Shown: in pieces, positions 55,478 to 58,685 of the stretch
Numbering within the stretch: the first letter of the stretch is position 1
Layout: each line of letters opens with the position of its first letter
DNA from: Escherichia coli
GTDB lineage: Bacteria; Pseudomonadota; Gammaproteobacteria; Enterobacterales; Enterobacteriaceae
Strand: one strand, 5' to 3'
Length of the DNA: 64,000 nucleotides
NCBI RefSeq assembly: GCF_003334385.1
Contig: NZ_QOWN01000022.1
Position numbers and translations under genes: made by a program
The notes under the pieces: model-generated
Databases searched by the model: none
What the model was told of the DNA's origin: nothing
Seen by the model: only the letters and a program-made list of their open reading frames with translations

Positions 55478-55710
55478 TGAGATCCCGTTATTTTTATCAA
55501 TTTTTGTTGCTATCCGATCGCAAAAAAGCCACGTCATATGATCAGATAATTCTGATAATGATAGACGCTATTTAACACTTCACACGGTTTGTATACGGAA
55601 AAGCATTTTGCTTTTTGTATTCAATTTAGACAGAATTTTATTAATCATTTCAGGGTAATGGGGTGATGAGATGTTGCGTAACAGGGCCAGAAGGCTAGAC
55701 TACAAAATAA

Positions 55711-56715
<1,005 letters not shown>

Positions 56716-56761
56716 CAAAAGCAATTTTTCCGGCTGTCTGTATACAAAAACGCCGCAAAGT

Positions 56762-56775
56762 TTGAGCGAAGTCAA
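56762..56775. promoter_or_regulatory. FNR box of the fnrS promoter (class II position)
   Basis: TTGAGcgaaGTCAA compares with TTGAT-N4-ATCAA. It is centred about 42 nt upstream of the FnrS 5' end at 56811. Confidence 0.75.
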
Positions 56776-56810
56776 TAAACTCTCTACCCATTCAGGGCAA
56801 TATCTCTCTT

Positions 56811-56932
56811 GCAGGTGAATGCAACGTCAAGCGATGGGCGTTGCGCTCCATATTGTCTTACTTCCTTTTTTGAATTACTGCATAGCACAATTGATTCGTA
56901 CGACGCCGACTTTGATGAGTCGGCTTTTTTTT
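56811..56932 (+). ncRNA. fnrS: FNR-activated sRNA FnrS, about 122 nt
   Basis: gcaggtgaatgcaacgtcaagcgatgggcgttgcgctccatattgtcttacttcc... matches my recollection of FnrS. It ends in the terminator gccgactttgatgagtcggc plus T8 and lies in the zntB-dbpA gap as in K-12. Confidence 0.88.
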
Positions 56933-56989
56933 GCCTGTTATTTATCAGCGTCTACCCTTTAAGAGTCCACCCAATGACCAGAGGGAAAT

Positions 56990-57163
56990 ATGACGACACT
57001 TATTTATTTGCAAATTCCTGTCCCTGAACCGATTCCTGGCGATCCTGTTCCAGTGCCCGATCCGATCCCTCGCCCGCAACCCATGCCTGACCCACCACCC
57101 GATGAAGAACCGATTAAATTGTCGCATCGTGAGCGTAGATCTGCGAGGATACGCGCCTGCTAA
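56990..57163 (+). CDS. Unannotated-size (57-codon) proline-rich small ORF between FnrS and dbpA
   Basis: ATG at 56990 preceded by gaggg (56981-56985). Translation: MTTLIYLQIPVPEPIPGDPVPVPDPIPRPQPMPDPPPDEEPIKLSHRERRSARIRAC. It has 16 Pro in residues 10-41 in an alternating X-P pattern and stops 29 nt before the dbpA GTG. It may correspond to a small gene (ynaL?) in recent K-12 annotations, which I cannot verify. Confidence 0.45.
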   Translation: MTTLIYLQIPVPEPIPGDPVPVPDPIPRPQPMPDPPPDEEPIKLSHRERRSARIRAC

Positions 57164-57192
57164 CTTTGCGTCGATGACCACGAGAATAGATT

Positions 57193-58566
57193 GTGACCGC
57201 TTTTTCTACCCTGAATGTTTTGCCTCCCGCCCAACTCACGAACCTTAATGAGTTGGGTTATTTAACCATGACGCCGGTGCAGGCCGCCGCGCTTCCGGCG
57301 ATCCTTGCCGGAAAAGATGTTCGCGTGCAGGCGAAAACCGGCAGCGGCAAAACGGCGGCTTTTGGCCTCGGCTTGTTACAGCAAATTGATGCGTCGCTAT
57401 TTCAAACCCAGGCTTTAGTGCTGTGTCCTACGCGTGAACTGGCGGATCAGGTGGCAGGTGAATTGCGTCGGCTGGCGCGTTTTCTGCCAAATACCAAAAT
57501 TTTGACGTTGTGCGGTGGTCAACCGTTCGGTATGCAGCGTGATTCGTTGCAACATGCGCCGCATATTATCGTGGCAACGCCGGGGCGTTTGCTGGATCAC
57601 CTGCAAAAAGGCACGGTATCACTGGATGCGTTGAATACGCTGGTGATGGATGAGGCCGACCGCATGCTGGATATGGGATTTAGCGATGCCATTGATGATG
57701 TCATCCGTTTTGCGCCTGCATCTCGACAGACGCTTCTGTTTTCGGCAACCTGGCCGGAAGCCATCGCTGCAATCAGCGGACGAGTGCAACGCGATCCTTT
57801 GGCGATTGAAATTGACTCAACAGATGCTTTGCCACCCATTGAACAACAATTTTATGAGACATCCAGCAAAGGCAAAATTCCTCTGTTGCAACGGTTATTA
57901 AGCTTGCATCAGCCATCCTCTTGCGTGGTGTTTTGCAATACCAAAAAAGATTGCCAGGCTGTCTGCGACGCGCTGAATGAAGTAGGGCAAAGTGCATTGT
58001 CATTACACGGCGATTTGGAGCAACGCGATCGCGATCAGACCCTGGTACGTTTTGCTAACGGTAGCGCCCGTGTACTGGTCGCGACTGATGTTGCTGCGCG
58101 TGGTCTGGATATTAAATCGCTTGAGCTGGTGGTGAACTTTGAGCTGGCGTGGGACCCTGAAGTTCATGTACATCGCATCGGTCGTACAGCTCGTGCAGGA
58201 AATAGCGGTCTGGCGATCAGTTTCTGTGCTCCGGAAGAAGCACAGCGGGCCAATATCATTTCTGACATGTTGCAGATAAAACTTAACTGGCAAACGCCGC
58301 CAGCTAATAGTTCCATTGCGACGCTGGAAGCAGAAATGGCAACGTTGTGTATCGATGGCGGGAAAAAAGCCAAAATGCGCCCGGGTGATGTATTAGGTGC
58401 ACTGACAGGAGATATCGGGCTTGATGGCGCAGATATTGGCAAAATCGCCGTGCATCCGGCGCATGTCTATGTCGCGGTCCGTCAGGCTGTTGCTCATAAA
58501 GCATGGAAACAGTTACAGGGCGGGAAGATTAAAGGAAAAACGTGCCGGGTGCGGTTATTAAAATAA
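57193..58566 (+). CDS. dbpA: DEAD-box RNA helicase DbpA (23S rRNA hairpin-92 specific), 457 aa (GTG start)
   Basis: Motifs AKTGSGKT, PTRELA, VMDEAD, SAT and HRIGRTAR, with a C-terminal RNA-binding domain. Confidence 0.96.
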   Translation: MTAFSTLNVLPPAQLTNLNELGYLTMTPVQAAALPAILAGKDVRVQAKTGSGKTAAFGLGLLQQIDASLFQTQALVLCPTRELADQVAGELRRLARFLPNTKILTLCGGQPFGMQRDSLQHAPHIIVATPGRLLDHLQKGTVSLDALNTLVMDEADRMLDMGFSDAIDDVIRFAPASRQTLLFSATWPEAIAAISGRVQRDPLAIEIDSTDALPPIEQQFYETSSKGKIPLLQRLLSLHQPSSCVVFCNTKKDCQAVCDALNEVGQSALSLHGDLEQRDRDQTLVRFANGSARVLVATDVAARGLDIKSLELVVNFELAWDPEVHVHRIGRTARAGNSGLAISFCAPEEAQRANIISDMLQIKLNWQTPPANSSIATLEAEMATLCIDGGKKAKMRPGDVLGALTGDIGLDGADIGKIAVHPAHVYVAVRQAVAHKAWKQLQGGKIKGKTCRVRLLK

Positions 58567-58612
58567 TGAAATGTTGAATTGCCGGGTGCAAGAGTAAACA
58601 TCTTATTCGGGA

Positions 58613-58685
58613 TTGCCGGATGCGACGCTGGCCGCGTCTTATCCGGCCTCCATAAGAGTAGCCCGATACGCTTGCGCATCGGGCG
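58613..58685. repeat. Two REP-type units between the convergent genes dbpA and ttcA
   Basis: ttgccggatgcgacgctggccgcgtcttatccggcctcc and gcccgatacgcttgcgcatcgggc (7-bp stem). Confidence 0.7.

Follow-up and report, generated by a model that had tools for sequence, protein, structure and literature searches.

The proline-rich small protein gene ynaL, between fnrS and dbpA in Escherichia coli, is conserved at the amino acid level with and without dbpA downstream

We analyzed a stretch of 64,000 nucleotides (nt) from Escherichia coli (contig NZ_QOWN01000022.1 of RefSeq assembly GCF_003334385.1; hereafter ‘the window’) and examined a short, proline-rich open reading frame (ORF) located between the gene for the small RNA FnrS and dbpA, which encodes an ATP-dependent RNA helicase. 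The ORF, apparent in the sequence and in the list of ORFs compiled for the window, begins with ATG, spans positions 56990–57163 of the plus strand including its stop codon, and encodes a peptide of 57 residues, MTTLIYLQIPVPEPIPGDPVPVPDPIPRPQPMPDPPPDEEPIKLSHRERRSARIRAC. Pro makes up 16 of the 32 residues at positions 10–41, and Asp, Glu, and Pro together make up 23 residues of this segment, including all nine of the sequence PDPPPDEEP; the motif DPPPD is encoded by codons 34–38 (57089–57103, plus strand). On the upstream side, fnrS and its intrinsic terminator occupy 56811–56932 (plus strand; Rfam RF01796, 134.8 bits at 56811–56928), with the terminator hairpin at 56905–56924 followed by a T-run that extends to ~56932. 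On the downstream side, dbpA (57193–58566, plus strand) begins with GTG. An earlier note on this DNA had described the position of the ORF, its peptide, its 16 prolines, its DPPPD motif, the 29-nt gap to dbpA, and the preceding FnrS terminator, and that description is accurate throughout.

The window is identical to the genome of E. coli K-12 MG1655 (NC_000913.3) across positions 56700–57400, and the K-12 counterpart of the ORF is ynaL (b4743; 1409308–1409481), flanked by fnrS on one side and dbpA on the other. A 701-nt query around the ORF had matches in 5393 of 5426 complete E. coli genomes, where RefSeq annotates the matched feature as ‘proline-rich small protein YnaL’ (WP_001296046.1). Likewise, the Pfam model PF23677.1 (‘Protein YnaL-like’) matched residues 1–57 of the 57 residues with an E-value of 2.1e-40 and a score of 136.9 bits (cut-off, 27). 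The ynaL coding sequence at 56990–57163 is thus identified by the ORF list, the RefSeq annotation, PF23677, and published translation data; ynaL is a genuine, previously known gene and not a new one, and the name that the earlier note had half remembered was right. The AlphaFold model of YnaL is an extended chain with zero secondary structure, with a predicted local distance difference test (pLDDT) score of ~90 for residues 21–40 and a predicted template modeling (pTM) score of 0.22. Searches with YnaL for sequence relatives in the PDB and among the PADLOC defense models returned nothing significant.

Translation of ynaL has been documented in two published studies. Nakahigashi et al. (2016; PMC4909307, supplement) identified the same 57-residue small ORF as an initiation site in tetracycline-inhibited ribosome profiling (TetRP) and selected it, as IVP7, for a chromosomal Venus fusion. 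VanOrsdel et al. (2018; PMC6001520) detected a chromosomal, C-terminal sequential peptide affinity (SPA) fusion by immunoblot, named the gene ynaL, and remarked that it adjoins dbpA and possibly forms one operon with it. The YnaL peptide in Table 1 of that study is identical to the peptide encoded in the window. The initiation peak and the chromosomal fusions that the earlier note had proposed as checks had therefore already been published, and the small protein that it suspected is genuinely translated. Beyond these detection studies, our literature search found no paper on the function of YnaL, its dependence on elongation factor P (EF-P), or an effect on dbpA.

To evaluate the conservation of the ORF at the codon level, we compiled 80 loci from 80 species of Enterobacteriaceae with DbpA as the anchor (DbpA 86–100% identical) and counted parsimony changes on a dbpA-based tree. 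A Pro-rich homologous ORF was identified just upstream of dbpA in 80/80 species. The acidic core of alternating X-Pro residues, PEPIPGDPVPVPDPIPRPQPMPDPPPDEE, encoded by codons 14–40 (57029–57109, plus strand), exhibits substitutions at third positions only: approximately zero changes were counted at the first and second codon positions, as opposed to mostly 11–29 changes at the third. The ratio of nonsynonymous to synonymous differences (pN/pS) for ynaL codons 18–40 was 0.149 at a pS of 0.635, compared to 0.091 at a pS of 0.615 for dbpA in the same genomes. The consensus of the core is ~SDPxPTDPVPxPDPIPxPQPxPDPPPD, and the N-terminal 10–17 residues are variable in both sequence and length. 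Because codons 14–40 vary almost exclusively at third positions, the amino acid sequence is under selection. This is the codon-level conservation for which an alignment of the zntB-dbpA spacer had been suggested.

The DPPPD motif, read directly from the sequence of codons 34–38, would be expected to cause a strong EF-P-dependent pause. Three consecutive prolines flanked by Asp constitute about the strongest EF-P-dependent context, and the output of YnaL in E. coli should therefore depend on EF-P. The motif is not universal, however: PPP is present in 72 of 79 species, only PP is present in three, and DPSPD, which lacks any Pro-Pro pair, is present in the remaining four, which are E. albertii and relatives of Citrobacter youngae. 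Individual alleles also carry larger changes within the ORF. One Salmonella enterica allele (P0053) has an internal 10-residue duplication, PDPRPHPQPM, and rare alleles from Enterobacter and E. coli (P0134 and P0136) are intact only up to ...PMP or ...DPP, beyond which the sequence is unrelated, probably as a result of insertions or frameshifts.

Searching 1.84 billion cluster representatives with a profile recovered only 32 clusters of the ynaL family, which is thus small, and the named members belong to the Enterobacteriaceae and to the Erwiniaceae genera Mixta and Erwinia. The distant members retain the core SDPxPTDPVPxPDPIPxPQPxPDP and terminate in ...PI[ILV]DPPPH[RM] followed by the stop codon; in Erwinia and Mixta, the last residues of YnaL are DPPPH[MR] or DPPPYR. 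Gene order in several of these taxa differs from that in E. coli. In Mixta gaviniae, M. calida, and M. theicola (four Mixta loci: L084, L085, L088, and L089), zntB-fnrS-ynaL is followed by ttcA in convergent orientation; within the next 3 kb downstream, no dbpA was identified. Phytobacter and Scandinavium, both of which belong to the Enterobacteriaceae, share the order zntB-fnrS-ynaL-ttcA, with ttcA convergent, and no dbpA was identified in the flank. In two species of Erwinia (three Erwinia loci: L086, L087, and L090), ttcA is located between ynaL and dbpA in the order zntB-fnrS-ynaL-ttcA-dbpA, with ttcA and dbpA co-directional, and dbpA there has a promoter-like TACACT of its own. The Mixta ynaL has a strong Shine–Dalgarno sequence, AAGGAGG, and a hairpin downstream, and pN/pS among the three species was 0.05–0.12 at a pS of 0.33–0.61, which indicates purifying selection. 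Since ynaL is under selection in Mixta with no dbpA behind it, the peptide has a role that is independent of its linkage to dbpA. The FnrS gene, in turn, lies ~35–70 nt upstream of ynaL in Mixta, Erwinia, Phytobacter, and Scandinavium as well. Collectively, these observations reveal that the linkage of fnrS and ynaL is universal and that the linkage of ynaL and dbpA is not.

The sequence between fnrS and ynaL harbors a putative promoter for ynaL, and possibly for dbpA, at 56931–56958 (plus strand), with a −35 element TTGCCT at 56931–56936, a 16-nt spacer, and a −10 element TACCCT at 56953–56958. The footprint, TTGNNN followed after exactly 16 nt by TAYNCT, was detected directly downstream of the FnrS terminator in 77 of 80 species, and the spacer positions between its two halves vary freely (10–17 parsimony changes each). 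The sequence CTAYNCT, usually followed by TA or TTA, was also identified in Mixta, Erwinia, and Phytobacter. In E. coli, TACCCT is preceded by C and followed by TTAA, and this −10 region, C-TACCCT-TTAA, resembles the extended −10 type of sigma-S/sigma-70 promoters. A scanner for consensus promoters returned no site at this position, the element being too weak for the scanner. From the footprint we infer a ynaL promoter with a predicted start near 56964–56967, ~7 nt past TACCCT, and a 5′ untranslated region of ~25–30 nt. The −35 element overlaps the end of the U-tract of the FnrS terminator. Downstream of the putative promoter, the Shine–Dalgarno sequence of ynaL, AGAGGG (56980–56985, plus strand), is located 4 nt upstream of the ATG. 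Within it, AGAGG underwent 1–3 parsimony changes per position compared to 13–20 in the flanks, and the ATG is conserved too. The predicted duplex with the 3′ end of 16S rRNA is −6.9 kcal/mol for ynaL versus −3.3 kcal/mol for dbpA.

The 3′ end of ynaL exhibits a different pattern of conservation from that of the core. Block A, CCGATTAAATTGTCGCAT (57110–57127, plus strand; codons 41–46, PIKLSH), is conserved at all three codon positions, with 0–4 changes at third positions compared to mostly 11–29 in the core, and in an alignment of 32 species it is invariant save for one T/A position and the last two bases. Block B, AGATCTGCGAGGATACGCGCC (57137–57157, plus strand; codons 50–56, RSARIRA), is separated from block A by a variable patch and is likewise conserved as a nucleotide-level element, being present as the exact 21-mer in 63 of 92 loci. 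Among the 79 species are 13 in which ynaL ends immediately after ...S(H)R, so that block B lies beyond the stop codon, and block B is still invariant there. Block B is therefore a nucleotide element rather than a conserved feature of the peptide, and the tail RSARIRAC would most simply be interpreted as read-through into this conserved element. The basic tail pointed out in the earlier note is thus present in the E. coli peptide but is not conserved as peptide. Invariance of blocks A and B at synonymous sites is confined to loci where dbpA follows; in the three Mixta sequences, with no dbpA downstream, the 3′-end codons of ynaL differ at synonymous sites. Block B was also looked for upstream of dbpA in Erwinia, where it was absent, and the notion that it is an element that travels with dbpA was set aside accordingly. 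Block B contains a GATC site and the Shine–Dalgarno-like sequence GAGGA.

The spacer between ynaL and dbpA (57164–57192, plus strand) is 29 nt long in E. coli and contains the weak ribosome-binding site of dbpA, CGAGA (57181–57185), of which CGAG is invariant; codons 1–4 of dbpA, GTGACCGCTTTT, are near-invariant at all positions. The ynaL stop codon is not fixed among the 79 species: at one extreme it lies 63 nt ahead of the dbpA start, and at the other it falls 50 nt within dbpA. In most species dbpA begins 14–63 nt downstream of ynaL, and the two overlap in three of the 79. In Klebsiella oxytoca, K. michiganensis, and K. grimontii (loci L047, L054, and L056, at ~2284–2550), the ynaL frame has no stop codon before dbpA and enters dbpA by 50 nt in another frame. 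Scanning identified no terminator-like site and no consensus promoter-like site between ynaL and dbpA: the only terminator-like sites in 56600–57300 were the FnrS terminator and two others, all of them upstream of ynaL. With regard to a sigma-70 promoter for dbpA within blocks A and B, the scanner returned none, and manual inspection of both strands yielded at best a match at 8 of 12 positions with a −35 element that is not conserved. Since neither a terminator nor a consensus promoter separates the two genes, and since the start of dbpA is a GUG preceded by a weak Shine–Dalgarno sequence, dbpA is most likely expressed from a ynaL-dbpA mRNA, of which it would be the probable distal cistron. 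The presence of invariant blocks beside the weak dbpA start, with its GUG codon and poor Shine–Dalgarno sequence, suggests a link in cis, probably translational coupling.

The interpretation that we favor, with a probability of roughly 0.6, is that the YnaL peptide is itself the selected product and acts in trans, that ynaL is co-transcribed and coupled with dbpA in most Enterobacteriaceae, and that any dependence on EF-P is passive. The invariant core is what selection maintains, and the peptide therefore most likely acts in trans. YnaL would be an intrinsically extended, acidic X-Pro peptide that serves as a binding element of the polyproline-II type for some partner. The gene would form the promoter-proximal cistron of a ynaL-dbpA mRNA transcribed from its own promoter after the FnrS terminator. 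Initiation at dbpA is probably helped by ribosomes that are translating, or finishing, ynaL, possibly with the involvement of blocks A and B. The DPPPD motif would render the synthesis of YnaL dependent on EF-P, and a slight effect on DbpA through polarity would then be a by-product, with no evolved sensor involved.

Several observations weigh against this interpretation. No YnaL binding partner or phenotype is known in the annotation or the literature searched. The absence of dbpA in Mixta, Phytobacter, and Scandinavium applies to the ynaL locus and its flanks. Co-transcription and coupling with dbpA are deduced entirely from the anatomy of the locus, and the candidate RNA helices at the junction show no covariation. 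The sequence GUCGCA in block A can pair with UGUGAC at the dbpA start (98% paired), but these pairs never vary, and covariation in the helix was no higher than in shuffles. RNAalifold predicted pairing of GAGGA..GCG in block B with dbpA codons 2–5 at −5 kcal/mol with zero compensatory pairs, and the single-sequence fold of the junction was no more stable than shuffles (z = 0.12). In addition, the combination of a variable N-terminus with a conserved, C-proximal segment of ~30 residues would also fit an arrest peptide that acts in the ribosomal exit tunnel. Finally, sequence with such an extreme Asp/Glu/Pro content is of a type reported to be hard to translate (PMC11162784), and selection may therefore have acted on the act of translation.

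The earlier note had advanced a different role for the ORF, namely that of a polyproline leader that tunes dbpA. In such a scheme ynaL would be a leader in cis, in which a pause at DPPPD reports on the performance of EF-P or of the peptidyl transferase center and adjusts dbpA expression through translational coupling or, after uncoupling of the ribosome from RNA polymerase, through Rho-dependent polarity. The presence of DPPPD in E. coli and of PPP in 72/79 species is consistent with this, as are the position of dbpA (14–63 nt downstream, overlapping in 3 species) with its weak translation initiation region, the nucleotide-level conservation at the junction, and the recurrence of polyproline in the family, whose distant members have another PPP near the end, two codons short of the stop codon (...DPPPHR/M). 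There are also precedents, since EF-P maintains the coupling of transcription and translation against Rho at polyproline ORFs (PMC5021804), and controls mgtA and mgtB through Pro codons in leader ORFs (PMC5299641, PMC6460261). Moreover, the ynaL core at 57017–57112 contains 44% C and 20% G, with a C/G ratio of 2.0–2.4 (up to 2.36) that exceeds the 99th percentile of 78-nt segments across the 64 kb, and the predicted fold of the 298-nt leader is less stable than those of shuffled controls (z = +2.06), such that this C-rich, G-poor, and unstructured core resembles a Rho-loading (rut) site. However, C-richness of this kind follows automatically from CCN codons, and full-length, C-terminally tagged YnaL accumulates in wild type. 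No intrinsic terminator and no covarying alternative structure were detected. In the efp/efpL pause-score data, as far as these were available to us, ynaL does not occur, and the PPI motif inside dbpA exhibits no effect of EF-P. As the reason for the existence of the ORF, an EF-P leader fits poorly, because PPP is missing in 7 of 79 species (four lack Pro-Pro altogether and three more lack PPP), because the ~30 constrained residues go far beyond what a PPP sensor would need, because the position of the stop varies between 63 nt ahead of dbpA and 50 nt into it, and because the ORF persists under purifying selection where no co-directional gene follows. We therefore consider this leader an unlikely explanation and sensing of EF-P on behalf of dbpA unlikely to be the main job of YnaL; it would be at most a lineage-specific overlay. 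A weaker cis link to dbpA in Enterobacteriaceae is nonetheless plausible: a shared operon with translational coupling would make dbpA passively dependent on EF-P. A variant that we regard as also unlikely is that an older, free-standing ynaL was co-opted in Enterobacteriaceae as a gauge of translation difficulty for DbpA. Passage of ribosomes through the DPPPD-containing core, rich in Asp/Glu and Pro, would then vary with EF-P, Mg2+, bL31, and the quality of the peptidyl transferase center, and the rate of passage would set the unwinding of blocks A and B and the opening of the weak dbpA GUG, with feedback to 50S assembly.

Other explanations also attribute the conservation to the act of translation or to something other than the ynaL frame. 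YnaL might be an ORF that is hard to translate in the manner of MgtL or MgtQ, in which the rate of abortion through intrinsic ribosome destabilization (IRD), as a function of Mg2+, bL31, and ribosome quality, sets the activation of dbpA. According to the published rule for destabilizing sequences, a window of six residues close to the N-terminus contains at least three Asp, Glu, or Pro (PMC11162784), a composition that YnaL has, given its 23 such residues at positions 10–41 and several 6-residue windows that score 6/6. The published motifs EPDPTP of MgtL and DPDPEPE of YagN (PMC11162784; bioRxiv 10.1101/2021.02.02.429294) are of the same Asp/Glu- and Pro-rich type, the run in YnaL begins only ~10 residues into the peptide, in the N-terminal region for which frequent IRD has been reported, and mgtQ, a small ORF that aborts translation, offers a precedent in that it promotes the translation of mgtB downstream (PMC8092293). 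Yet full-length tagged YnaL is detectable, so abortion is incomplete, the structural switch is unsupported by covariation, and the ORF is conserved without a downstream target; we judge this account to be quite improbable. The same retention of the ORF without a downstream gene, in three genera, argues against a SecM/TnaC-style arrest peptide whose 30 residues fill the exit tunnel, stall the ribosome near ...SHR or the stop codon, and remodel the dbpA initiation region. A variable N-terminus followed by ~30 conserved residues ending in ..S(H)R would suit such a peptide, and this ending directly precedes the stop in 13/79 species and in the Kosakonia and Pseudescherichia forms; block A is also complementary to the region of the dbpA start codon. 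Nevertheless, the C-terminal motif depends on the clade (EEPIKLSHR versus PI[ILV]DPPPH[RM]), the helix that would sequester the initiation region is without covariation, and the E. coli product is read through to a C-terminal tag, which together render an arrest peptide highly improbable. Lastly, the conservation might reflect an RNA or DNA element, an antisense ORF, or an ORF in the +1 frame, with ynaL as translated noise. In favor of this, the nucleotide-level conservation of blocks A and B holds whatever the frame, and long ORFs exist on the opposite strand (56945–57181, minus strand) and in the +1 frame (57102–57248). The variable sites in codons 14–40, however, are third positions of ynaL and first positions of the antisense ORF, a periodicity that rules out the antisense ORF as the target of selection, and the +1-frame ORF loses its ATG in the many species that encode Asp38 as GAC. 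No Rfam family matched in the ynaL region, the leader is less stable than shuffled sequences, and translation from the ynaL ATG is documented experimentally. For codons 14–40, this explanation is effectively refuted, and overall it has next to no credence.

Comparison with characterized systems places YnaL in partial agreement with several of them. The leaders MgtL and MgtP of Salmonella mgtA and mgtCBR, together with mgtQ, are like ynaL short ORFs rich in Pro and acidic residues (EPDPTP in MgtL), in which translation difficulty, through Pro codons and EF-P or through IRD, sets the expression of the downstream gene. These ORFs comprise from at most 17 to ~30 codons; each precedes its target without exception and belongs to a long, structured leader in which alternative stem-loops or Rho sites have been demonstrated. 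YnaL, in contrast, has ~30 conserved residues, has no switch that is supported by covariation, and persists without the target; ynaL precedes dbpA in 80/80 of the dbpA-anchored loci, but the arrangement differs in Mixta, Phytobacter, Scandinavium, and Erwinia. Amino acid attenuator leader peptides of the hisL/trpL type differ in another respect, since a scan of 56600–57300 revealed no terminator/antiterminator arrangement for ynaL-dbpA, and the Pro codons of ynaL are free at their third positions. SecM, TnaC, and MifM share with YnaL a variable N-terminus and a conserved segment of approximately tunnel length that immediately precedes the initiation region of another gene. Unlike them, YnaL has an inconstant C-terminal motif and is retained without a downstream gene.

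Two further proteins resemble YnaL in composition or in motif. In CadC, an EF-P-dependent PPP tunes the copy number of the protein itself and not that of a downstream gene. The PPP of YnaL is likewise flanked by Asp, and EF-P status should set the amount of peptide that is made, judging from the general strength of this motif; unlike in the CadC scheme, the PPP is dispensable in 7/79 species. The spacer of TonB, (EP)n(KP)n, to which the earlier note had compared the peptide, is an alternating X-Pro sequence as is YnaL, and both are probably extended polyproline-II rods. This likeness holds for composition but goes no further: YnaL scored 20.8 bits with the TonB model NCBIfam NF008084, compared to a cut-off of 315, and 11 bits (E-value 0.68) with Pfam TonB_N PF16031, compared to a cut-off of 33, and YnaL has neither a transmembrane anchor nor a C-terminal domain.

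The constraint on the YnaL peptide (pN/pS 0.15) is comparable to that on an enzyme. Such strong constraint, together with the confinement of the family to Enterobacteriaceae and Erwiniaceae, the linkage to fnrS, and survival without dbpA, suggests that a role in trans should be sought before, or alongside, a role as a leader. Should co-option for DbpA nevertheless turn out to be true, it would be a rare case in which ribosome assembly is tuned by a read-out of elongation competence, and ynaL would be a long and conserved addition to the small set of ORFs that sense EF-P or IRD. The comparative results of this analysis, namely the independence from dbpA, the promoter footprint, the blocks at the junction, and the interpretation of the tail as read-through, are useful leads and do not amount to a new kind of system.

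Two other regulatory connections at the locus were considered and rejected. Autoregulation by DbpA through a mimic of hairpin 92 (H92) of 23S rRNA was evaluated by comparing both strands of the leader (56933–57230) to rrlH; the shared 8–10-mers did not exceed those of shuffled sequences, and nothing was detected near H92 at position 2549. Pairing of FnrS with the region comprising the 3′ end of ynaL and the 5′ end of dbpA yielded a duplex energy no better than that of shuffled targets (fraction 0.66) in what was a crude test.

Additional features were observed in the neighborhood of these genes. Upstream, the 15-codon ORF ynaN (55671–55718, plus strand), which is annotated in K-12 and RefSeq and whose coordinates were transferred from NC_000913.3, is located 13 nt upstream of zntB and is a possible leader ORF for this zinc transporter gene. 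Our Rfam scan identified only FnrS and, downstream of dbpA, a sub-threshold match to naRNA4, of the repetitive extragenic palindromic (REP) type; the match covers 58610–58648 in the dbpA-ttcA intergenic region on both strands, with 29.1 and 25.1 bits versus a gathering threshold of 59.5. Further downstream, the cryptic prophage Rac begins at ~59581, within the region of the 3′ end of ttcA, based on transfer of the K-12 annotation.

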